From the sequence record KP869112: a stretch of DNA of 64,000 nucleotides; one strand, given 5' to 3'. This stretch comes from Escherichia coli O157 typing phage 14. Every line of letters starts with the position of its first letter. Position 1 is the stretch's first letter. The notes beneath the pieces were generated by a model. The model worked only from the letters and a program-made list of their open reading frames with translations, ran no database searches and was not told where the DNA came from. Of the stretch, positions 3,041-63,711 are shown one piece after another. A program made the translations under genes and the position numbers.

Positions 3041-3352
3041 ATGGCTACAATACAAGAAAGACTGAATAAAATATACTGCCTGTTTGTCTATAAAGGCGAG
3101 ACAATTTTGGCAAATAAAGGATACAAGAATGTGTGGATCAAGGACAGTGGTGGTAATATAATCAACTTAGCGTTGCTACGTGAGCGCCGACACAGATTCT
3201 TTATCGAGTCTCGGATTATTGAAAGCAGCACCTGCTACAGAACCGGCGATAAAGTAATTGTTGACAATGATACGTGGTATGTGGTAGACTGGCAATCATT
3301 GAGCTGTGATGCTTCTGACAATCGTAAGTATTCCCTAGTGATTGCTAAATAA
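3041..3352 (+). CDS. hypothetical protein (103 aa)
   Basis: ORF with GGAGA RBS; downstream of promoter. Confidence 0.5.
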   Translation: MATIQERLNKIYCLFVYKGETILANKGYKNVWIKDSGGNIINLALLRERRHRFFIESRIIESSTCYRTGDKVIVDNDTWYVVDWQSLSCDASDNRKYSLVIAK

Positions 3353-3412
3353 AGGTAAATGTGAATCAGGTTTAAATAAATAGCTTTCAACTTCCAATAT
3401 TAAGGATTTCTC

Positions 3413-4462
3413 ATGAATTTAACACCTCGCAGCACCATGGTACACGGCATGAAAGAAAAACAGAACGGTTTCGAACCTATGAGTAATAAAATGTTTGGTA
3501 TGCCGGGTGGTATTATGGAAACATACAGCTACCCAACACCTGTTGTTGACCACGTTCTTTATATCGACGATTTGGAAGACTTACAAGATCATATGTCTCG
3601 TCTGCAGACGATCCGTATGGCTCAGCCGGAAGAAAGCATTCGGGTGATCATCAATAGCCCTGGGGGTTGCGTGCACATTGCAATGGCTTATCTGCAGGCA
3701 TTCCGCGAGTCTCAGGCAAGCGTTGTTGCACATGCTGAAGGGATGTGCTGCTCTGCTGGAACAATCTTATGGCTTGGTTGTAAAGAACGTACTGTGGCTC
3801 CGGACACAGAATTTATGTTCCACTACTATCAAGGTGGCACTTATGGTAACGGTGTGAACATGAATACTCAGGTCAGCTACTGGAAAAAACGTTTTGAACG
3901 CCTGATCGAAAAATACTACGGTGGGGTGCTGACAGAAGATGAGATCGCATCCATCACAGCTGGTGGCGAAGTGTGGTTGGACGGAGAAGAGCTGGCAGCA
4001 CGCACTGGAGCTATTATTCTGGATGAAGGCAACATACAACGCATCCAGAACGGACAAAAACCGAAAAAGCTTCTGGCAAAAGGTGATGAAGAGGGCGTGT
4101 TAGGTGAAGCAGGTCTTCCGGAGATTCACCAGTGCACATCTTTAGATGAGTTAGTTCATGCTGTTGAATCTGCAAAAGCGGGTGGTTCGAAAGGTGATGT
4201 TCACACTGTGTTCCTGAATCTGCAGATGGAAAGTGGCGAGACCGTCCGAATTGCCCTGGGTGAGATTACTTCAGAAGATCTGCAGAGATTCTCTGTCGTT
4301 GAACTTCAGGATATTCTGTCTCAATTGAAGACTACTCTGAACGGCGGTGAAGAGGTTAAGGTGAAAGATAAGACTCGCAAGCGTCTGGTGGATAATATTA
4401 TTAAAACAGCAAAAGAGCTCAATGAAAAAATCCTGGGCGCAGGAATTGTCGAAGAAGTTTAA
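3413..4462 (+). CDS. ClpP-like (S14 family) serine protease with C-terminal extension
   Basis: INSPGG motif, candidate active-site Ser in GMCCSAG and His in FMFHYYQGG, matching ClpP catalytic layout. Confidence 0.6.
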   Translation: MNLTPRSTMVHGMKEKQNGFEPMSNKMFGMPGGIMETYSYPTPVVDHVLYIDDLEDLQDHMSRLQTIRMAQPEESIRVIINSPGGCVHIAMAYLQAFRESQASVVAHAEGMCCSAGTILWLGCKERTVAPDTEFMFHYYQGGTYGNGVNMNTQVSYWKKRFERLIEKYYGGVLTEDEIASITAGGEVWLDGEELAARTGAIILDEGNIQRIQNGQKPKKLLAKGDEEGVLGEAGLPEIHQCTSLDELVHAVESAKAGGSKGDVHTVFLNLQMESGETVRIALGEITSEDLQRFSVVELQDILSQLKTTLNGGEEVKVKDKTRKRLVDNIIKTAKELNEKILGAGIVEEV

Positions 4463-16525: not shown

Positions 16526-18049
16526 CACACAATTAGCTACCCGGCTAAAGTGCTGGGAGCACCTATAACACATCTTTCAACTAAATTTCCTACCACCACA
16601 ATCACTTACCTCCCACACATGACTGTTTGCTTGTTTAGTGAGCAGTCATGCCTTGACATTCTTGCCTATCCTGATAAAATTAAGTTCTTCTCTTTTCTTT
16701 TACCGAGTAATTCGGGTTTTCTGTTCTCTTCGGTTTGAAGGGGTATGGAGATACACCTGAGTGAACAGGGTGAACAACCGAACCATTGGCTATGGCATTA
16801 GCATGGCGAAGCGGACGGGTGACGAAAGAGGGGCCGGAGGACACCAGTCACTGCCATATGATATATAGGTGATAACCTGAAGAGTCTGAATAAGTGTTTA
16901 AGTACCAGTCAGAGGAAAAGGTGAATGGTAGCCGAAGGGGGAGGGGGGTTTCTTGTATCTTTAATTTGTATATTATGTATACACTTGTAAACCAACACCA
17001 TCTGAATTTGCTTACCACACAAAGCGGATAGAGACAAATATTACCTATTAAACTTGAATTATTTATAGAAAATACCACAACACCACTTAAGTCTTTGATT
17101 TTACACATAAATCCTACAGATATTCACCCTCCATATTTAACATACTTGTAACATATCTATACCCAACCTGTCTGATCAACTCACCCAACTACATCCTCCA
17201 TATTTCCCCTGTCTGTACTACCCCTGCCCAGCCGGGAGTCCCGTCATATCTGGCTTTCCAGCAAATATCACACCCACAAATATCATTGCCTGAAGAGGGT
17301 TTCATCCCATAATACATGCCTTACCTGAAGAGCGCTTCATACACCACGTAAATTTTTTAATTGACCTGCAATTTTCCCGTCATGACCCCCTGCCCCGCCA
17401 GAGAGGTTGACTTTTCCCACACAGACCTGAAGAGCCAGCCAGAAATATCTGAACAGGTCCAGTTATACCACGATTTTGACCTGACCGACAGGAGTGCCTC
17501 CCTGTCAGGAGCCGGTAGCGACTGGAGTGCTGCCAGGCGGACGAAATGGGAATACTTCTCATTCTTATAATAATTCTCAAATATCGAGGCAGTGAGGCAA
17601 ATTAATAGGTGAGGCCGTTCACACAGTGGCACAACATTTGCAACCTATCTTGTGGGGTGAATGAGAATACCTATCATTGTGAGAATAGTTATCATTACGG
17701 GCAATTTAACATAATACCCATTATGCGCACCACTGGCGATACATACAGGGGTTGATAACATGAGTTACTGTTTACGCACATAACAATTATATTTCTTACT
17801 ATTTGTGTGGGATATAGTTAGCAGCCGATAGATTAGATATTGACCTGTAGACTTCCAACCGTCTAGACGTCTAAACGCCCACACAACAAGGCTTATACAT
17901 ACATCACTGAATGTAAACAGGACCGCAAAAATGCTACCATACAAGCTTGTAAATTTTTCATGCAGCACTTGACAAAGAGGAGGAAAACTTGTCTGACACA
18001 CTGGGCACAACATAACATACTGCAGCACAATATGACACAATAACGACTG

Positions 18050-18400
18050 TTATTATTTCATGTTTCACTGTTCACGTATAGATTGTTCCCGCATAGACTG
18101 TTTACGCCTGGATAGTTCACGCATAGATGATAAGCCATGCCATTCGTTTGCATGACAATAATTAACTTGTTTACAATAGATGACATAATATAAAAGCAGG
18201 GCAACTATTAGAAGATCATAGTTGCCTTGCTTGTTATGTCATGATTAACTAAATACAAGGCAACTATGATCTGATTAATAGATTGCAGACAAACTATCAC
18301 GGGGGTGATTGTTACTGCTTTTATATTATGTCGCGACTCCGTCGCGCCATGCCATTCGTTTGCATAGTTGCCTTATTGTTACAGATAAAATAATTGTATT
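18050..18400. repeat. cluster of direct and inverted short repeats in large non-coding region
   Basis: Four GTT(C/T)ACGCATAGA-like direct repeats at about 18060-18130; GGCAACTAT/ATAGTTGCC x4; CATGCCATTCGTTTGCAT x2; GACATAATATAAAAGCAG inverted pair. Confidence 0.6.
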
Positions 18401-18985
18401 GTTAATTATTTCTTATCTTTCTATTAGTCATCTAATGATTTCAGTTAGTATAGTAACGTACAGTAAACATTAGACGACTAAAGATTTCTCTGCTTATAAT
18501 AACCTAACGTGACAATTCCGGACTGTTTACGAAAAATGTTGACACCTGAGCTGATTTATGTTATGCAGTTTACACGAATAATTATTTTATGCAGGTATTG
18601 ACTATTCTGTTATTCTATGGTTGGAATAAATACTTAGCAGGCTATAGAATGGTGAGCGTACGTAAATTCTAAGATCTGGCGGCTATAGTTATGCCCGATT
18701 TTTCACGTAGAAAACGCTTTTATGAGTGTGTAAGTGTATGACTTATAAAGATTTTTAGTTGTTGACAAGATACTGAAGATGTGCATCAGGTTAAATTTTG
18801 TGCAATAGCGGCATTACGTGCAATTTTGGAAGGAAAAACGTGTAAAAAATGGCGCTGCTACCACACAATGAAAGATTATGCAATAGCTATTTTACATGTA
18901 TGTTTGTACAGTGGTGGTAATTGATGGCTTGTCGATTATTCCACTTGCCAGGCTGGGCCGTTTGTGGTAGGGGAAATACAGACAA

Positions 18986-19012
18986 AAAGAAAGGGGCCTT
19001 TTAAAGCCCCTG
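18986..19012 (-). terminator. rho-independent terminator (minus strand)
   Basis: GGGGC...GCCCC hairpin followed on minus strand by TTTCTTTTTG. Confidence 0.6.
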
Positions 19013-19029
19013 ATAGTTTAGTTAATAAA

Positions 19030-19449
19030 TTATAATGATTCGTATATTTCAAAAATCCGATTTGCCAGGTCGTTACGGTACCGGAATTTTTCTTCACGTT
19101 TGATCATTAGATCTTTGAAGCCGTATTCTTTAAGCACTTCATTAACTTTATAGCGGCATACCCTCATATTGTCTTGCGCGTCACCGATAAACTTGTTGCT
19201 ATGGTGCATGGCTTTAATTTCTTCTTCCAGGACCAGGGCAACTATGCGGACCGGATCAAGCTGATAGGCGGTAACATCCATGCGGCATTGTAAACGGCTT
19301 TTTACGTCTGCCACCGGGTATACTGCAACCTCTTCCCCGTCAACATTGACAATAATTAGTTTACCATCGATTTCGAATCCTTTCGCCGCCGGACCGTGAC
19401 AAAAAGCGTTATCAAAGCTATATGCCGGATTATTAGATTTGATGTTCAT
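19030..19449 (-). CDS. hypothetical protein (139 aa)
   Basis: ORF at distal end of minus-strand array; terminator downstream. Confidence 0.5.
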   Translation of the reverse strand: MNIKSNNPAYSFDNAFCHGPAAKGFEIDGKLIIVNVDGEEVAVYPVADVKSRLQCRMDVTAYQLDPVRIVALVLEEEIKAMHHSNKFIGDAQDNMRVCRYKVNEVLKEYGFKDLMIKREEKFRYRNDLANRIFEIYESL

Positions 19450-20216: not shown

Positions 20217-20489
20217 TTACTTGCGGCGGCAGAATTCAAGCGTTTTTAATTGATAATCTTCCTCAGCCTGGAGTACGACCGCCTCGATCATTTCGTTGGC
20301 ATTGTTAAAGCCATAACCTTTAGCGAACTCATCCGCGCCACCTTCGTGATCATGTTCTGCGTTCATCGCTTCCACAAAATGGAATTCCAAATTGTTGAGG
20401 TAGGGGCTTGATGTTCCGTCCTCTTTTTCGATGAGATCCCAAATAGCATTAAAACGTGATTCGACTTCTTGATTAATCCAGCTTGACAT
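20217..20489 (-). CDS. hypothetical acidic protein (90 aa)
   Basis: Promoter, hairpin, CACACAACAACCAGAAGAGAGGAAAACATT leader, ATG. Confidence 0.5.
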   Translation of the reverse strand: MSSWINQEVESRFNAIWDLIEKEDGTSSPYLNNLEFHFVEAMNAEHDHEGGADEFAKGYGFNNANEMIEAVVLQAEEDYQLKTLEFCRRK

Positions 20490-20543: not shown

Positions 20544-20572
20544 ATGTTACCCCACCCCCTGGCAGATGTCAA
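20544..20572 (-). promoter_or_regulatory. sigma70-like promoter on minus strand (TTGACA-N17-TAACAT)
   Basis: Hexamers read on reverse complement upstream of 20217..20489. Confidence 0.5.
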
Positions 20573-20700
20573 CGGTTTTTATAGTTCTTATATGACAGGC
20601 ACCCCCGGTGATTGTCTCCCCCCGTCGCCAGGTGCCTGCCGTGGAATAAGTATAACAAAAAACAGGACCATTGCAAGCCCTGTTTTGTAGTTTATAAATA

Positions 20701-25834: not shown

Positions 25835-26142
25835 GATATTTTCTCCTATTTTCTTTGTTAGTGGCGGGNNNNNNNNNNNNNNNNNNNNNNNNNNNNNNNN
25901 NNNNNNNNNNNNNNNNNNNNNNNNNNNNNNNNNNNNNNNNNNNNNNNNNNNNNNNNNNNNNNNNNNNNNNNNNNNNNNNNNNNNNNNNNNNNNNNNNNNN
26001 NNNNNNNNNNNNNNNNNNNNNNNNNNNNNNNNNNNNNNNNNNNNNNNNNNNNNNNNNNNNNNNNNNNNNNNNNNNNNNNNNNNNNNNNNNNNNNNNNNNN
26101 NNNNNNNNNNNNNNNNNNNNNNNNNNNNNNNNNNNNNNNNNN

Positions 26143-26540: not shown

Positions 26541-26738
26541 CTATTTGTCTTTGTGGCGGTATCGTTCCGCCTGTCGTTCACGTTCCAAAAGCAGGCCCGG
26601 TAATTTGCGATCATAGTGATTTCTCCAGATCTTCCCGAACCTTTTCGGTTTATTCGGTTTATTGTTACGCTGGCGGCGTTCCGGCAGCTCTTCGGAATCG
26701 TGGGGGCGCTTTACAATTTTTTCGAAATTAATTTTCAT
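26541..26738 (-). CDS. small basic protein (65 aa)
   Basis: Internal ATG with AAGGGGGCG RBS; Arg/Lys-rich; ORF track 26541..26762. Confidence 0.45.
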   Translation of the reverse strand: MKINFEKIVKRPHDSEELPERRQRNNKPNKPKRFGKIWRNHYDRKLPGLLLERERQAERYRHKDK

Positions 26739-27081
26739 AAACGCCCCCTTTACTGATCTCAATATTTGCCTGAATCGCCCGGATACGACGTTTTATAGTC
26801 TCCTGATCCTTGCAATCATATCCCCAAAAGTCTACGATTTTTGCGCCGCCAGCCTTTAAGCGGTATAATGTTTCTTGCATCTTGTAAGCTGGGATCGGTC
26901 TCGGTGTTACCTGGTCCCCTTTCTCATCCTTGTACTTGATAATGTAGTCTTCATTGTCGTTGAATACCCAAAATGGGTATTCTGTAAGCGCGTTGCTCTC
27001 TTTTTCGTTTTTGGATTGGATCTTGTTTACAATTAAAGCCGTAGCAATAGCGCCAATAATAAAACTTGCCCCGCTGATCAT
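26728..27081 (-). CDS. hypothetical protein with N-terminal TM helix
   Basis: Internal ATG with AAGGAG RBS; ORF track 26728..27099. Confidence 0.45.
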   Translation of the reverse strand: MISGASFIIGAIATALIVNKIQSKNEKESNALTEYPFWVFNDNEDYIIKYKDEKGDQVTPRPIPAYKMQETLYRLKAGGAKIVDFWGYDCKDQETIKRRIRAIQANIEISKGGVYEN

Positions 27082-27157
27082 GTTACTTTCTCCTTTCATT
27101 GTGCTGATAAACTATCTTTATAGATGGCCCTGCTACCAGGACCACCGAAAAAACAGT

Positions 27158-29261: not shown

Positions 29262-29946
29262 AAATTTATCCTCTTTACTGGTTAGTGCGGTGTTGTTCAC
29301 CTTGTAGGGTAATAATACCATGATTAACCTTGTTGTCAACGACTATTTTAAATTATTTTTATGATAGAATCCACCTGCCGCCCCCGCCAGGTTAACCACC
29401 ATTTTTTCGTACTCTTCTTTATGTTCCAACGCTCCCGCCATAGCCTTTTCAACCAGGGCGATAGCCTCAGCGTCATTAATCGCTACATTTTCCAGGGGAT
29501 CATATTACCTTTCATTTTTGTACCTCCTCTCCAGTTGTTGCCTACCCTATAGCATAGCCCTACCAGGTTTGCAAGCTTTCACTCTCCCCTGCCAGGCTGG
29601 CCCCGCCAGGTCCTGGCAGTGGGCGCACCTGGTTATAATTTTTTTTTTGAAAGGTGTTGACAGCGGCCCCGCCAGGTGGCACAATATACCTATCGAAAGG
29701 ACGGCAGGCACCGGTGACGGGGGAGACAACCACCGGGGATGGGCGCTGCATAAAATGAGAACGGTTATCATTATCATTTAAAAATTTATGCAAAAAATCC
29801 TTGCTTTCTTTGTCCTGTGTGATACTATAATAACAAGCCGGGGCAACAGGGGCCGGGAGACAATCACCGGGCCTGCCCGTTATTCTGCAAACGAGAATGA
29901 TTATCATTCAAAATTCTAAATGAGAACTCCTCACATTTAATAAATT

Positions 29947-29964
29947 TAATTAGCATGCTAATTA
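29947..29964. repeat. 18-bp perfect palindrome TAATTAGCATGCTAATTA
   Basis: Read directly; lies in AT-rich intergenic region. Confidence 0.7.
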
Positions 29965-30019
29965 CCCTCCGTAACAATTTCCTATAAAACAGTATCCCAT
30001 AAAATATTCCCATATAGAA

Positions 30020-30480
30020 ATTTTAAAAATCCATTTCTGAAAACGAAAAATCGATTTCGTCCCCAAAAATTTCAGGTCGAGATCCGGAACGATTTCCAGA
30101 AAATCCGATTCAGAAAACGAAAAACAGATCGAGTACTGAGAAATTTATCGAGAAAAATTTTCAGAAAATCCAAGCCCTGAAATGAAAAGTAGATCGAGTA
30201 CCTGGAAAGCTGCACCGCAACTTCAAGATAGTGGTTAGATTGTTACCATAGAAGGTCAAGGGTAAGTGGAGGAAGTTCTGGTAGAGGGAGGTTAGCATGT
30301 GTGGGAAATCTATAATGGTGGCCTGGAATATGGTGCAAACGATAGGATGAGTTATTCAGCTTGTCGCGCCTACTCTGAAAAATCCATTTTAGTTTTCGAT
30401 CCATTTTCTGATTTTCTAAGAATTTTAAAATATCCAGCCTGGTGAAATATCAAAAGGAGGAAATCCATTTTAGAAATCCC
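30020..30480. repeat. cluster of degenerate direct repeats (GAAAATCC / CTGAAAACGAAAAA / AGATCGAGTAC)
   Basis: At least seven related copies in 460 bp of non-coding DNA. Confidence 0.55.
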
Positions 30481-30513
30481 CCTTATACTTGATATGCCAG
30501 GAATTTTCAAGTA

Positions 30514-30843
30514 TCAGTTGTCTTTGTTTTTAGGTTTGTACATGCGCAGAGGTATGGTCTTTGTAACATTCCATTTCCTCAACCCTTCCCAGCTCCAGTT
30601 GTGGGCGTGGTATCCGGTTATGCATGCACTACTGGGGTGATCGTAAGCATAAGAGAACGCTAAGCGCACCAGGTGGGGCCAGTCCTTCCATGGTTGTGGA
30701 CCGTAAGCTTTTCTCCAACACCGACACAAACTAAATGTCTCAAGGATAGGAAGGATAACAAACCCATACACTGTCACCAAAATAGCCAGCGCAATGATTG
30801 TCAGGAATACATACCCTGCAGTTGAAACGATGATCTCTGTCAT
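30514..30843 (-). CDS. membrane protein (109 aa)
   Basis: N-terminal TM helix VFLTIIALAILVTVYGFVILPIL. Confidence 0.5.
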   Translation of the reverse strand: MTEIIVSTAGYVFLTIIALAILVTVYGFVILPILETFSLCRCWRKAYGPQPWKDWPHLVRLAFSYAYDHPSSACITGYHAHNWSWEGLRKWNVTKTIPLRMYKPKNKDN

Positions 30844-37905: not shown

Positions 37906-38129
37906 AGGCCCTCTTCAACAGCTACAAACTTGGCAAGCAGGCTGGTTCCGTAGATATGATACTCACCGTTTGCCAGATGGGAGATAAACCAGGCAATCCC
38001 TTCCTCGTCTTTAATCATCTTGTTTGCACGATTTTTATCGTAATAAACCTCGTAGGTCTCTCCTTCTTTAAAGAAGGACAGGTCTGTCATCTTTTCTTCT
38101 ACAAAAGTAGCTTTAACCAAAGTTGTCAT
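37902..38129 (-). CDS. hypothetical protein (75 aa)
   Basis: 4-nt overlap junctions. Confidence 0.45.
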   Translation of the reverse strand: MTTLVKATFVEEKMTDLSFFKEGETYEVYYDKNRANKMIKDEEGIAWFISHLANGEYHIYGTSLLAKFVAVEEGL

Positions 38130-38459: not shown

Positions 38460-41237
38460 TTAGTGACAATCACCCCAGTTACGACCACACAAGTATTCAC
38501 CTGTGATCTGGAACGGGACTCCCATCATTTTAGAAGCTTGCCAGAAGCAATGCACCACCATTTCACCTACAGGGCTCCAGATAAGTTCAAGCTTTCCGTC
38601 ATCGTTCAGGATAGGATCGTACACCGTGTTTCCGTCTCTGTCAACCACTTCGTTTCCGTCCTCATCCTTGCGTGCCTTTTTGTACTTATGACCGTCGAAC
38701 ACATGAAGTTTGGCCTCCTGCTCTGCCTTAAATGCTTCCAGTTCTTCAATTGTGTCGAAGGTGTACACAGTCTTATACTTCGGTGTGTCAGGCACTTGAA
38801 GCTGATATTCGTCATGGTAATAGATAATACGACGGACACCTTCATCGTACCACCCACGCTTCACCATTTGGTGGTGCATGAGTATCCCAACTAAGTCACA
38901 CAGCGATGCACCACCATTCTGTTGGTATGCATTAAGTAAAGAGTGTTTAGATCGGGTCCAGATAGCATGACCATCAAAAGAGTAGATAAACTTCTTACCT
39001 GTTGCTTCCCAGAATTTCTCCAGATCCTCTTTGCGCCCCTTAAGACCAGGGTTGGCATCCCAGAGTGCATCGATTACCCTTTGTCCCAACTCTGGAGAGA
39101 TGTCCAGCATATCTGCAACTTTATCTTTTTGTGCCCCGTACATAACCCCATACGTGATAGGTTTACCGTCGTTACGAGACACCTCTCTGCCTGCTACTTT
39201 TGTATATGCCTCAGCATTGTTTTGGTGTGCGTCCCCGTTACTTACAACATCATAATACAAGCCGTTGTCGAACTCAAAGGCACCCCAAGCCCCGATAAGC
39301 TGCTCTAAGTTGGACCCGTCAATACCGATCTCAAAGTATCCAGGAGGAACACCCCACAAGCTACGCATCTCCTTACCCATAACCACTTTAGGAGAGGGTT
39401 TAGGCATGTTTGCACAAATGCTGTGTTTCTGTCTGGAAGTGTTTGTTAATCCGGAGCTTTTAGCAGGAAGCTTATGGTCAATCTTCAAGCGTGGGTGATT
39501 AAGAAGACCAGTATCAACCTTATCCTCCTTGATTGGATCAAGGACCGATCTGCGGTTTCGCAATGATAACCACAAGACGATATCCTTAGCCATCTCTCCG
39601 TTCAATTTTTCAAGATTCGGACATAGGTGTCCAAACGTATCTTTCAGTTGCGGAGAAGTAATAAGTGCCCTAGCTTTTCTACGTATTTTCCCGAATACTT
39701 CCTTTTTAATCCTTTCGGAGTTAGGAAAGCTTCGGAACTTGTGCACTGTTGTCTGAAACTTAGCATCAGTTTTGTTCCAGAAGTTGATAATTAGGTCACA
39801 ATACTCTGACTCTAAAAGCTCGTCCATGTATGCATATACTCGTGCATCAACATCTGCATCAGGTAGAGCTTTCTTCTTGCTGTCTTTAGTTACATCCTTA
39901 GTTCTCCACATTGTCGGAAGCCAACCAGCACTGATCAGGTATCGCTTAATGTCGTCCTGATTGCTGATTTTCATAGGTATCTTGCAGTCCGGCATTCGCT
40001 TCTGCTGTAGATCACTTATTGCCTGATCCATCAGCTCTTTAGGTAAAGGTTGTGGTGTGGAAGTGCCCTTAATATAGCCTCTCAAGAAATCAGCCATCTT
40101 ATCAGGGTCTTTGCAGCCCATCTCTTCACACCATTTTATCCCCATCTTACTGACATCTCCTGTGGAGGTAAATGCTCGCTTAGGCTGGGCTTTGAACTCT
40201 AAAGCGCTCATGTCTACAGGATAGCCAAGCTTATCTTTTAACCATTTCCAACCATTATTGGAGATTGTCCCATCTTGGTTAAACGGCTTTTCAGGGAACT
40301 TGGGCCGCTGAGACATTGACAGCTCTTTTAAAGGTAGTTGTGGTTCAACACGATCAGCTATTTCTTTCATCCACGCATCACAACGGTCACGTAAAGCAAT
40401 AGCTCCATCTATGTCAAAATACACACCCTGACGGGCCTGCAGCTCCATCAGGAAGTGCTGCAGCATGCCTCGGCGTAGTGCGTTCTTCCAGGTGATCTTC
40501 TTGAACCCTTTCGGCTTCTCTTTGGCAGGATCGTACATAAAGTTCTGCATGTCAGATTTGCCGTAGAATACACCTTTTGATTCCGCTACCAGCTCTTTCC
40601 AGAGCAGCTCCTGGATGATAACGTCCTCGAATACACGATCCACATACTTCCACAATGGAAGATCGCGCCAGTCATCAATTTGAACTTTCTGGTTACCAAG
40701 GGCGTAGCCCCATGCCATAAGGCCGTGAGGACCAACAGGCTGCATTTTCTTAGTAACCGGGTTGAATACGGAGTCCGGACAACCTTTTGGTAAAGGGCGA
40801 TCAGGCCACAAGATTCGGCTCATCGCCAACGTATCAAACAGGTTAACCTGGTGGTCGTTGATAGTCCCCATACATTTAGGATCACGGAACATATCAAAAT
40901 GAATACCGGATAATCTCTCCATCAGCATAAAGTCATAACTGTAGCAGTTATGGCAGTTCAAAGCTGTTGGTGACCAGTCGGAATTTCCTGTAAGCCAACC
41001 TTCCAACTCCGAAAAATCTGCTATGCGAACTTCAAAATCCTTATAAAGAGTTTTCTTTGCCAGAATAAAGTTCTTGGCCTTCTCTATATCCTCCTCGGAG
41101 TAGTGTGTGCGGTCATTCAGAGGAAGGAACAGCATAAAACGGTTCTTATTCAGCTCTTTAAACAGGCCGCAGTGATAATAAAGATCTGGGTCTTCCAGCA
41201 AACCGGATGACTCAAAATCGAACGACCACATGCTCAT
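38460..41237 (-). CDS. family A DNA polymerase with 3'-5' exonuclease domain
   Basis: N-terminal FDFE (Exo I DxE), KPITYGVMYGAQ (motif B YG) and YYHDEYQ (motif C HDE) characteristic of Pol I family. Confidence 0.85.
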   Translation of the reverse strand: MSMWSFDFESSGLLEDPDLYYHCGLFKELNKNRFMLFLPLNDRTHYSEEDIEKAKNFILAKKTLYKDFEVRIADFSELEGWLTGNSDWSPTALNCHNCYSYDFMLMERLSGIHFDMFRDPKCMGTINDHQVNLFDTLAMSRILWPDRPLPKGCPDSVFNPVTKKMQPVGPHGLMAWGYALGNQKVQIDDWRDLPLWKYVDRVFEDVIIQELLWKELVAESKGVFYGKSDMQNFMYDPAKEKPKGFKKITWKNALRRGMLQHFLMELQARQGVYFDIDGAIALRDRCDAWMKEIADRVEPQLPLKELSMSQRPKFPEKPFNQDGTISNNGWKWLKDKLGYPVDMSALEFKAQPKRAFTSTGDVSKMGIKWCEEMGCKDPDKMADFLRGYIKGTSTPQPLPKELMDQAISDLQQKRMPDCKIPMKISNQDDIKRYLISAGWLPTMWRTKDVTKDSKKKALPDADVDARVYAYMDELLESEYCDLIINFWNKTDAKFQTTVHKFRSFPNSERIKKEVFGKIRRKARALITSPQLKDTFGHLCPNLEKLNGEMAKDIVLWLSLRNRRSVLDPIKEDKVDTGLLNHPRLKIDHKLPAKSSGLTNTSRQKHSICANMPKPSPKVVMGKEMRSLWGVPPGYFEIGIDGSNLEQLIGAWGAFEFDNGLYYDVVSNGDAHQNNAEAYTKVAGREVSRNDGKPITYGVMYGAQKDKVADMLDISPELGQRVIDALWDANPGLKGRKEDLEKFWEATGKKFIYSFDGHAIWTRSKHSLLNAYQQNGGASLCDLVGILMHHQMVKRGWYDEGVRRIIYYHDEYQLQVPDTPKYKTVYTFDTIEELEAFKAEQEAKLHVFDGHKYKKARKDEDGNEVVDRDGNTVYDPILNDDGKLELIWSPVGEMVVHCFWQASKMMGVPFQITGEYLCGRNWGDCH

Positions 41238-41295: not shown

Positions 41296-43374
41296 TTAAA
41301 AAGGTGTTTCATCATCCTCAAAACCAGGAACATGGTCAGAGGACGGATCATCGTACTGGAGGTCTTCCTGCGTGTCAACAGGCTTAACAGTAGGAGTTAC
41401 AACCTTATCAGCCACAACCTTGCCCATAGGTGTTTCTACAACTGCATGCTCCTGATCCTCAAACATAGCCTGAGGTCTCCAAACAACCTCCCCACCTTCT
41501 CCATCTGTAAACATTTGCATTTCTTTGTCCCAGTACCAATTACTGGCATCATGGAACTTACCTGTATGTGGGTCCATAACCAAAGTGTCTGCAATACCCA
41601 ATGTTTTTGCTGGACGGTTTTTAAGACCTACTAAACGGACACGCCCACGAGAACGATCCACCATTTCTTCGGCCTCGACACCTATGACTACCCAACTCAA
41701 CTGTTCAAGCCCAGCCGATCCTCGCAAATTCTCTTTTCGCACAGGATACCAGAAAGGTAACGGGTTACCATCCTTGTCTTTAGGAGGCACAATCTCTGTA
41801 CGTTTGAGGTGAGCGATCACCAAGATAAACACATTAAACTGCTTACAAAACGCAGCCAGTTGGGTCATAGCTATGTCCAGTTCTTTTCGCTCATCCTTAA
41901 CATTAAGACCTGAAATTACCATGGACAGGTGATCCAGCACAATATAACGACAATGGTACAGGCAAACCATTTGCTTAAGCTTGGTAATCAACTCGTCCAC
42001 CGGAATAGATCCGAAATGTTTGAACACTTTGATTTTTCCAGCTTTTGCCCATGATTGGTGAATCTCTGCGTGTTCTTGATCAGTTAAAAACTGGCTAGGA
42101 TCTTCAACAAACTCTTTAACATCAAACCCTAACTGGTTTGCATACAAGGAGTTAATTGCTTCCTCTGGGTCCTCCTCAAGATGGATCATGCATAGACGAT
42201 CATCCTCTTCGTAGTCATCGGCCTTCGGGCATGTCGGGTCCATCAAGTATCTTGCAATACAATGTTCCAGTTTTTTAGCTACAGTTGTTTTACCGCCCCC
42301 TGATGGCCCTGTAAGCATTACGAGTGTCCCTTTGTGCAAGCCTTTTAGCATTTTTTGCAGTTTTGGGAACTCTGCACTGATATCTACCCCGTTGGAAGTC
42401 TTTTTCCGCAAAGACTCGATAGAGAAGTCTTCTAAATCCGACACAGCATCAGGCACATATTTAACAGGGTGCCGGAACATGTTGACAATATCTTCCAGCT
42501 TTTTAGCCTTCAGCATGTCTCGGATATCTTTTACACCGTCAGGGTCATTTACTTCACCAGGGTATTCTACGTGGTAAACGTTATCAGCCATCAAAAATGC
42601 TGCGATATTGTGCGTGGCCTCAACACCTTTAATGACGTGTTTTTGCTTCTCTACCTCGTTAGCTGCATCGTTATCCATTGCCAGCACAACTGTTCCATAG
42701 CTACGGATAAACTTCTCATTGTTTGCAAAAGTATCTACTGCGTTTGCACATCCACAGTTAATTCCAACAAAAGGCAGGCAGGGTTTTCCTGCCAGATCAC
42801 CACCGTTGATAACTGCGTCGATCCCGTCCTGGACCTCTTTAGCCCACTGCTTCACCTTTGCCGGGGCTTTAGCGTTGGTGAGAATCCCTTTTACTTGTAT
42901 CTGATATGCAGCCTGCCATGCTGCAATAACATCACCTTCTCCCTCACAAACGTTAATCTGCTTACGGTTGTTGGAAGATGCACACAGCTTTTGACCAAAC
43001 ATCTGGGAGTTGGCCTTTACGATGCCAACAACGGAGAAATGGCCCCTTTGCTCTTTAGGAATAGTCCAGTCACGCTTTTTGAAACCAGACAGATTTCCAT
43101 AGCGGTCGTAATATGGGAAATATGTTGCAGTGACTGTCACACCGTCTTCTTGGGACAATGCTGATCGCACACCAAAATATTGTGCAGCCATAAGACCGAT
43201 ATTTTGTTGTGGGACAGGGACAATTTTAGTATTTTCTAAAACAGTCTCTACAGTTTCAACTTCTTTTTCATCACGATAGTCTCGTTTCACACTTCCCCCA
43301 CTTTTATACTTAGTTGCTTTCGGGTTTGGCTCACCGAAACGGTTGTATGCAGATGCCATAAATTTACTTCCCAT
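41296..43374 (-). CDS. bifunctional primase-helicase (Toprim plus DnaB-like helicase)
   Basis: Walker A LTGPSGGGKTT, Walker B-like, N-terminal EGEGD Toprim-like motif; immediately upstream of the polymerase gene. Confidence 0.75.
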   Translation of the reverse strand: MGSKFMASAYNRFGEPNPKATKYKSGGSVKRDYRDEKEVETVETVLENTKIVPVPQQNIGLMAAQYFGVRSALSQEDGVTVTATYFPYYDRYGNLSGFKKRDWTIPKEQRGHFSVVGIVKANSQMFGQKLCASSNNRKQINVCEGEGDVIAAWQAAYQIQVKGILTNAKAPAKVKQWAKEVQDGIDAVINGGDLAGKPCLPFVGINCGCANAVDTFANNEKFIRSYGTVVLAMDNDAANEVEKQKHVIKGVEATHNIAAFLMADNVYHVEYPGEVNDPDGVKDIRDMLKAKKLEDIVNMFRHPVKYVPDAVSDLEDFSIESLRKKTSNGVDISAEFPKLQKMLKGLHKGTLVMLTGPSGGGKTTVAKKLEHCIARYLMDPTCPKADDYEEDDRLCMIHLEEDPEEAINSLYANQLGFDVKEFVEDPSQFLTDQEHAEIHQSWAKAGKIKVFKHFGSIPVDELITKLKQMVCLYHCRYIVLDHLSMVISGLNVKDERKELDIAMTQLAAFCKQFNVFILVIAHLKRTEIVPPKDKDGNPLPFWYPVRKENLRGSAGLEQLSWVVIGVEAEEMVDRSRGRVRLVGLKNRPAKTLGIADTLVMDPHTGKFHDASNWYWDKEMQMFTDGEGGEVVWRPQAMFEDQEHAVVETPMGKVVADKVVTPTVKPVDTQEDLQYDDPSSDHVPGFEDDETPF

Positions 43375-63611: not shown

Positions 63612-63711
63612 NNNNNNNNNNNNNNNNNNNNNNNNNNNNNNNNNNNNNNNNNNNNNNNNNNNNNNNNNNNNNNNNNNNNNNNNNNNNNNNNNNNNNNNNN
63701 NNNNNNNNNNN

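Follow-up and report, generated by a model that had tools for sequence, protein, structure and literature searches.

The DNA analysed here is a 64,000-nucleotide stretch of Escherichia coli O157 typing phage 14 (sequence record KP869112; referred to as the window), in which a gap of about 1 kb, 29517-30513, interrupts a long run of small leftward genes of the early type. The repeats at 29947-30480 appear to be the core of a cis-acting, non-coding module that fills this gap, and a replication origin is its most likely function, at a probability that we place somewhat below even. This assignment builds on the anatomy of the module, its conservation across genera, its uniqueness in the genome, the lack of coding constraint, the intolerance of a related phage to insertions and the distance from known genome ends. 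Over its full length, the region is 84-95% identical to rV5-like E. coli myophages (Vequintavirus), the closest matches being the phages Gotham and EdH4 (~95% identity). The DNA polymerase (38460-41237) and a T7-like primase–helicase (41296-43374) are encoded on the same strand as the flanking genes, ~8-13 kb to the right.

A preliminary description of this DNA reported a palindrome, degenerate direct repeats and a purine-rich tract. It missed the elements just upstream, which are two early promoters, hairpin RNAs and Fur-box-like operators (29657-29911), as well as the right-hand array at 30371-30480, which differs in kind from the first array. From left to right, the parts of the module are as follows.

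29556-29680, no strand assigned: GC-rich left border with GGCCCCGCCAGGT repeats (GCCAGGT/CCWGG cluster), from a direct-repeat search.
29657-29685, plus strand: predicted promoter P1, TTGACA, 17-nt spacer, CACAAT, with TG before the -10 hexamer, from a promoter scan.
29704-29749, plus strand: hairpin copy 1, loop GGGAGACAACCACC, RNA fold of -20.1 kcal/mol (z = -2.5), invariant in the genus.
29757-29775, no strand assigned: Fur-box-like operator 1, 16 of 19 matches to GATAATGATAATCATTATC.
29801-29831, plus strand: predicted promoter P2, TTGCTT, 19-nt spacer, TATAAT.
29841-29878, plus strand: hairpin copy 2, loop GAGACAATCACC, paralogous to copy 1.
29887-29933, no strand assigned: Fur-box-like operator 2, with two overlapping registers of 14-15 matches of 19 at 29887-29911 (15 of 19 at 29893-29911), followed by a half-site.
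29947-29964, no strand assigned: 18-bp perfect palindrome TAATTAGCATGCTAATTA, the symmetry of which is not conserved.
29965-30051, no strand assigned: AT-rich, easily melted stretch, the candidate DNA-unwinding element, with three TCCyATAwA copies (29980, 29995, 30008), overlapping iteron U1.
30009-30064, plus strand: composite iteron U1, with the degenerate end ATCGATTTCGTCCCC.
30065-30137, plus strand: composite iteron U2, with GAAAATCCGATTC, AGAAAACGAAAAA and CAGATCGAGTAC, nearly invariant in the genus.
30138-30203, plus strand: composite iteron U3, with GAAAATCCAAGCC, CTGAAATGAAAAG and TAGATCGAGTAC.
30204-30370, no strand assigned: variable, non-coding spacer with the purine-rich tract, 42% invariant columns.
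30371-30480, plus strand: right-hand array, with (A)ATCCATTTT (CCATTT) at 30380, 30399 and 30461 and AAATATC at 30428 and 30445.

The left half of the module has two predicted promoters that point into an easily melted stretch. P1, found by the scan, opposes the flanking leftward genes, is invariant in all nine genomes of a Vequintavirus alignment, and agrees with the TGTTGAC early-promoter consensus reported for related phages; the T10 run at 29641-29650 is a predicted UP-like element for it. P2 was missed by the scan, which was limited to spacers of at most 18 nt, and is recognised from the conservation of its hexamers in other genera, where the spacer length varies. Directly downstream of P1 and P2, and directly upstream of iteron U1, which it overlaps, lies the AT-rich stretch. 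By composition, 29972-30051 (78% AT) is the second most AT-rich 80-mer of the window, and the third least stable 60-bp duplex of the window starts at 29971.

The direct repeats are located next to this stretch. The preliminary description had counted at least seven of them; these are real and far from chance, but they are sub-motifs of one ~40-nt unit that is present three times, in the same orientation and conserved among relatives (30009-30203). This holds for GAAAATCC, GAAAACGAAAAA and GATCGAGTAC, which are parts of the composite unit rather than independent repeats, and for the three motifs GAAAATCC, CTGAAAACGAAAAA and AGATCGAGTAC by which the repeats had been described. A repeat search returns three direct-repeat copies of ~62 nt at 30008-30208; Tandem Repeats Finder reports only a 12-nt mini-repeat for the region, because the long units differ by indels. 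When 15 units from five phage lineages are aligned, they follow the pattern GAAAAT(A/C)C(G/A)wTTy, GAAAAyGAAAA, N2-3, GATCGAG(T/A)ACC. The motif AAATCCATTT has three exact copies in the window and three in the 136-kb genome of the related phage Bas54, all of them within this gap. On the minus strand, at 30033-30070 within iteron U1, there is a terminator-like, AU-rich hairpin followed by a T run, oriented such that it would stop leftward transcripts before the AT-rich stretch; the number of such sites in the scan is no higher than the chance expectation.

The iterons are followed by the variable spacer and by the right-hand array. The purine-rich tract noted at 30230-30340 is confirmed as a compositional feature: its purine content of 65% places it among the highest 1.2% of 111-nt windows. 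It is poorly conserved, however; 42% of its columns are invariant, as compared with 84-92% of those in the iterons and hairpins. The AAATATC(C/A) motifs of the right-hand array were considered as DnaA boxes and as IHF sites, and both assignments were dropped as inconsistent between phages. The invariant columns amount to up to 92% in the promoters, hairpins and boxes, 84% in the iterons, 42% in the spacer, 38% in the left border (29556-29680) and 16-69% in the ends of the flanking genes, and from this pattern it follows that conservation tracks the DNA motifs and not the reading frames.

The architecture recurs beyond the genus although the sequence does not, as shown by the loci of anhysbys, PVP-SE1 and KPP-1 and by twelve IMG/VR loci retrieved by the loop pattern. 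The elements follow one another in this order: a sigma70 promoter with conserved hexamers and a spacer of variable length, the hairpin, between one and six copies of the AATGAGAATsATTmTCATT box, three long direct repeats that end in GATCGAG(T/A)ACC, a variable spacer of ~170 bp, three CCATTT motifs and two to four AAATATC motifs. The full architecture is present in Vequintavirus, in Seunavirus PVP-SE1, in Mydovirus KPP-1 and in two IMG/VR contigs. Phapecoctavirus has the same layout with a different repeat motif (AAAAACTTTAAATA), and the Pseudomonas phages of the genus Nankokuvirus (PAK_P3, PAK_P5, CHA_P1, Ab03) share the promoter and hairpin and carry three copies of GAAAATCTGTCGAGTACC and four of AAATATC, without the Fur-like boxes and CCATTT and with a small ORF, gp80, in the spacer. 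The architecture of the element thus extends from E. coli phages to Pseudomonas phages. Within the whole genome of Bas54, the motifs of the module are specific to this site, the exceptions being a third copy of the hairpin core and the AAATATC pairs of a 2.5-kb non-coding region; pairs of AAATATC within 40 bp are found only at these two places.

The gap is annotated in the records of relatives with four different mini-ORFs, on which the annotators disagree, and the coding reading of all four is rejected because of stops, frameshifts and non-synonymous changes. In FV3, SYGMH1 and YN3, the frame of bas54_0101 is cut short by a stop codon, and the substitutions in this frame are non-synonymous; the frame of gp194, annotated in rV5 and FV3, is broken by stops or frameshifts in six of the nine genomes. 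The frame of gp193/bas54_0102 is open over ~87 aa, with frameshifted ends and ~11 substitutions that are essentially all non-synonymous, and it stays open because the DNA is almost invariant.

Three mini-ORFs of the gap were scored as genes in a HIDEN-SEQ transposon screen of Bas54 (phage MaxBurger, MZ501093), which lists the saturation gene by gene (10.1101/2025.11.20.689424, Extended Data Tables 2 and 8). Positions 80,600-82,800 of Bas54 align to the window with 89.6% identity in reverse orientation, which places the insertion data as follows.

bas54_0103, flanking gene, 29343-29515: 12 of 14 TA sites hit, intermediate.
bas54_0102, 29633-29907 (promoters, hairpins and boxes): 5 of 15 TA sites hit, strong fitness defect.
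bas54_0101, 29962-30066 (TA sites 29964-30025): none of 11 TA sites hit, essential (10.1101/2025.11.20.689424).
bas54_0100, 30072-30218 (iterons 2 and 3): 1 of 3 TA sites hit, not classed (NA).
bas54_0099, flanking gene, 30513-30843: 18 of 21 TA sites hit, non-essential.

The authors of the screen do not discuss bas54_0100, bas54_0101 or bas54_0102 (10.1101/2025.11.20.689424). Since the ORFs are not credible, the insertion phenotype is read here as that of a non-coding element, and the essential 'hypothetical gene' bas54_0101, together with bas54_0100 and bas54_0102, is probably a non-coding cis element. The core that is free of insertions is the AT-rich stretch between the promoters and the iterons, which is the layout of an origin, and the partial tolerance of the part with two promoters fits with redundancy of P1 and P2. 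The earlier proposal of an origin, packaging or regulatory site is therefore retained insofar as the repeats are conserved, non-coding, unique in the genome, adjacent to an AT-rich stretch and, in Bas54, intolerant of insertions; packaging has become the less likely part of it.

For the steps that involve replication, R-loops, protein binding or Fur, we infer the following course of events from this layout. Right after infection, the host sigma70 RNA polymerase would fire rightward from the tandem early promoters P1 and P2. The transcripts would begin with the G-rich hairpin that carries the GAGACAAnCACC loop, cross the Fur-like operators and enter the easily melted ~80 bp at 29972-30051. A protein, probably encoded by the phage, would bind to the three phased ~40-nt iterons (30009-30203) that abut the AT-rich stretch, and the second array (30371-30480), on the other side of the freely evolving ~170-bp spacer, may pair with the first one by looping. 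Transcription (or an R-loop) and the iteron-bound protein would then open the AT-rich stretch, such that the primase–helicase and the DNA polymerase could load.

Several observations weigh against an origin at this site and keep its probability at the level given above. There is no skew inflection at the module, neither in the window nor in the rV5 study, and the rV5 genome paper states that skew analysis did not locate the replication origin. The ten flanking proteins have no assigned function in Pfam and PHROGs searches, and no initiator candidate is found among them. The iterons are unusually long and, at 65-95 bp apart, widely spaced when compared with classical iterons of 17-22 bp, and the 19-nt spacer of P2 is a further point of this kind. 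No single origin of T4 or T7 is indispensable, and those models therefore do not predict a strict intolerance of insertions. A 2.3-kb non-coding region at 16740-19030, at the switch between rightward and leftward genes, shares AAATATC pairs (17263/17278), Fur-like boxes (17545, 17660-17699) and CCTGAAGAG repeats with the module; its Bas54 counterpart has no transposon insertions, and the origin could therefore lie there. This region is probably the 'first' candidate site implied by the preliminary description and is likely to be the packaging or terminus region.

A clearly less likely, though possible, explanation of the same data is that the module is an essential regulatory or RNA locus, in which P1 and P2 make small hairpin RNAs or antisense transcripts into the leftward early genes from 30514, and in which the repeats serve as operators through which regulators of the phage or the host, possibly Fur, time the early genes. 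P1 and P2 each precede a G-rich hairpin with the conserved loop GAGACAAnCACC, and it speaks for this explanation that the loop is the most conserved sequence of all. Copy 2 is the sole piece with similarity detectable by blastn in distant genera (72-88% identity in Phapecoctavirus, Seunavirus, Mydovirus, Certrevirus and others); the match covers the P2 hairpin and box (~29840-29944) and always falls in unannotated DNA. Behind the PAK_P3 hairpin there is a U run, as in a short terminated RNA, and antisense RNAs are annotated beside this hairpin. In one IMG/VR phage (L017 as compared with L008), a promoter and hairpin also occur together at a second site that lacks iterons, and the same combination serves as an ordinary 5' leader of early genes at 20569-20693 of the window, so it is not specific to an origin. 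The Fur-like boxes score as well as real operators, and insertions between P2 and a downstream target would be lethal under this explanation too. On the other hand, the insertion-free core at 29964-30025 consists of the AT-rich stretch and the first iteron, the hairpins tolerate insertions at 5 of 15 sites, the genes that an antisense RNA would target are dispensable, and three phased 40-nt repeats with a second array across a free spacer are unusual for operators.

The evidence for RNA structure is itself mixed. Folds of single sequences have an outer stem and a short inner stem that closes the conserved loop, and, as judged by eye rather than counted by a tool, changes in one arm of the inner stem are matched in the other (CCGG/CCGG, UCG/CGA, GCG/CGC). 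When compared with shuffled sequences, the folds are only moderately better, with z from -3.1 to +0.1. When 14 hairpin copies are aligned with MAFFT, their 5' arms are misaligned, and for this reason RNAalifold finds no consensus helix. Rfam searches of the window and four related loci, with gathering and permissive thresholds, give no credible match.

The third promoter and hairpin of the window, at 20569-20693 on the minus strand, has the GAGACAATCACC loop, a perfect 10-bp outer stem and a fold of -24.6 kcal/mol; it is the 5' leader of the early genes that start at 20489 and lacks a Fur-like box and iterons. In Bas54, the hairpin core likewise has three copies, two of them in the module and one as the 5' leader of an early operon (the equivalent of 20569-20693). 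The hairpin unit, which also leads early genes at this place, is thus an element of early leaders in general. Where hairpin copy 1 would be, other genera carry another conserved GC-rich element of ~100 nt with its own promoter (…GAGGAAACGCCACCCCACGGCGAAAAGGCGGGGCTAAC…GGAAGGTGGATCGCCGGTAG), which has one helix with apparent compensatory changes and no Rfam match. It is located at 2335-2480 of locus L004, 2290-2440 of L005 and 9095-9240 of L023, is also present in L008, L009, L011 and L012, and is preceded by a small rightward gene (PVP-SE1 gp201, KPP_12301, anhysbys_79).

It is conceivable, though rather unlikely, that the module is an origin or an essential control switch that is gated by Fur-Fe(II) bound to the operator array, which would decide whether transcription reaches the origin. 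The boxes were scored by mismatches to the 19-bp consensus GATAATGATAATCATTATC, with calibration on the ent/fep cluster of E. coli K-12. This calibration recovers the fepD-entS and fepB-entC operator regions at three to four mismatches (15-16 of 19), which places the phage boxes within the range of real operators: 16 of 19 and 15 of 19 for the best two in the window, both within the module, and 17 of 19 for the Bas54 copy of operator 1, the best match to the Fur consensus in that genome. The window holds nine sites with at most five mismatches (three and four mismatches for the best two) against 2.6 expected, and a degenerate half-site, AAATGAGAAC, lies at 29918-29927 within the element of operator 2. 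At the corresponding position, other enterobacterial phages have arrays of one to six such boxes. The boxes do not overlap a promoter that Fur would repress; they are downstream of the hairpins, at about +55 to +75 from the starts of P1 and P2. A blastn search of the box array against E. coli genomes gives weak matches on plasmids and beside IS elements, and none at iron promoters. The Fur-like boxes are absent from the Pseudomonas version of the module, and the ligand might be a phage protein. If Fur gating were true, phage DNA replication would be tied to the iron status of the host across several enterobacterial phage subfamilies; conversely, amplified box arrays could titrate Fur and thereby de-repress host genes for iron uptake and ribonucleotide reductase. 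The arrays thus raise the possibility that a strictly lytic phage senses or manipulates host iron regulation.

A packaging (pac) site, in which both arrays wrap a small-terminase ring and cleavage occurs in or near the variable spacer, as for SPP1 pacL/pacR or lambda cosB, is quite improbable. Vequintaviruses are reported to be circularly permuted, which implies headful packaging from some pac site, and such sites are essential in cis, consistent with the transposon data. The phased repeats with A/T tracts form two arrays on either side of a centre that is less conserved, and pairs of AAATATC also occur in the region of the KPP-1 terminal repeat. This 514-bp terminal repeat is, however, in the other, larger non-coding region (the equivalent of 16740-19030), 8.5 kb from the KPP-1 module; the terminus of PAK_P3 is at gp113, whereas its module is between gp79 and gp81; and in Bas54 the terminase gene (terL) is ~55 kb from the module, whereas pac sites are usually in or beside terS/terL. 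Packaging is considered less likely because the known genome ends of these related phages lie elsewhere; moreover, pac sites are not known to have early promoters that point into an AT-rich stretch. Functions other than an origin, a regulatory or RNA locus, a packaging site or coding genes are, taken together, unlikely.

That the module consists of small protein-coding genes (rV5 gp193/gp194; bas54_0100, 0101 and 0102), with the essential call reflecting a 34-aa protein, is extremely improbable: ORFs of 34-115 aa are annotated in several records and bas54_0101 is classed as essential, but different annotators call different ORFs in the gap, and none of these is an intact frame under purifying selection in the nine genomes.

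The palindrome is where it had been reported, TAATTAGCATGCTAATTA at 29947-29964, and by itself it is weakly non-random. The window has two perfect 18-bp palindromes, at 29947-29964 and at 38061-38078; simulations of the window with an order-1 Markov model give 0.24 perfect palindromes of at least 18 bp, with at least one in 65 of 300 runs (22%). The second one, TCCTTCTTTAAAGAAGGA, is located just downstream of the stop of the minus-strand DNA polymerase gene. The perfect form at 29947-29964 is kept in three of the nine genomes (the window, Gotham and ECML-10); five others carry TAGTTAGCATGCTAATTA, with a mismatch in one arm, and in the remaining one the centre is broken (CACG). At the equivalent place in other genera there is no palindrome. 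Because the symmetry is lost in six of nine relatives and the palindrome is absent in other genera, a special role for it, and its proposed use as the site of a dimeric regulator, is unsupported. Long-range pairing of 29954-29983 with 30270-30299 was also considered and rejected, as in the relatives the right arm is free to vary and the left arm shows no compensation.

Other features of the surroundings concern the left border and a nearby gene. The CCWGG/GCCAGGT motifs at 29556-29680 are often within promoter spacers, no part of the Bas54 genome is denser in CCWGG than the counterpart of this left flank, and a gene for a Dcm-like methyltransferase is present in that phage; the motif is also abundant in the Pseudomonas version (PAK_P3 locus L032, ~3300-4300). 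At 26728-27099 on the minus strand, 2.6 kb from the module, lies the homologue of bas54_0110 (117 aa; PHROG 12734; no Pfam match), which is classed as essential in Bas54 and could conceivably be a factor that acts at the module. The tRNA scan finds no tRNA. Masked runs of N at 25869-26142 and 63612-63711 distort naive palindrome and composition scans.

The rV5-like and related large myophages are widely isolated and are used in biocontrol and therapy, and their origin has never been located; a search of the accessible literature finds no mention of iterons or of an origin for these genera. The present analysis provides a precise candidate origin with defined parts, and the module marks DNA that is to be left intact when engineering these phages.

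When compared with known systems, the candidate origin combines features of several. The primary origin of T7 consists of tandem promoters and an AT-rich region, and T4 oriF and oriG of a promoter and an unwinding element; the module likewise has promoters aimed into an adjacent AT-rich, easily unwound stretch, in an early/middle region, in a phage with a T7-like primase–helicase and its own polymerase. It differs in that its promoters are of the host sigma70 type rather than dependent on T7 RNA polymerase or MotA, in that the predicted transcripts begin with a conserved structured hairpin, in its long iterons and second array, and in that it appears indispensable, whereas those origins are individually dispensable. 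As in the iteron origins (lambda ori; P1 oriR, F oriS, pSC101 and RK2 oriV), direct repeats of the same orientation lie beside an AT-rich candidate unwinding element, and the site may, like them, be required in cis. P1 and F have two arrays with the rep gene between them, and in the PAK_P3 module the small ORF gp80 is in the spacer between the arrays. Those iterons are units of 17-22 bp at a spacing of ~22 bp, whereas here they are ~40-nt composites of three sub-motifs, 65-95 bp apart; the second array uses different motifs, there is no recognisable Rep, O or other initiator gene nearby, and there are no clear DnaA or IHF sites. The SPP1 pacL-pacC-pacR and lambda cosB R3-R2-R1 sites likewise have phased repeats and A/T tracts around a central segment and are essential in cis, as the module may also be, but the module is neither near the terminase genes nor at the mapped ends of related phages. 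The phage boxes resemble the Fur operators of E. coli in their scores (14-17 of 19, equal to or better than real operators scored alike) and in their tandem or overlapping arrays, and differ from them in their preference for GAGAAT over GATAAT and in their position ~55-75 nt past the starts of P1 and P2 instead of over the -35 and -10 hexamers. If the module is an origin, it would add to the known ones long, composite and widely spaced iterons, a second heterologous array, and a hairpin and Fur-like array between the promoters and the unwinding element.

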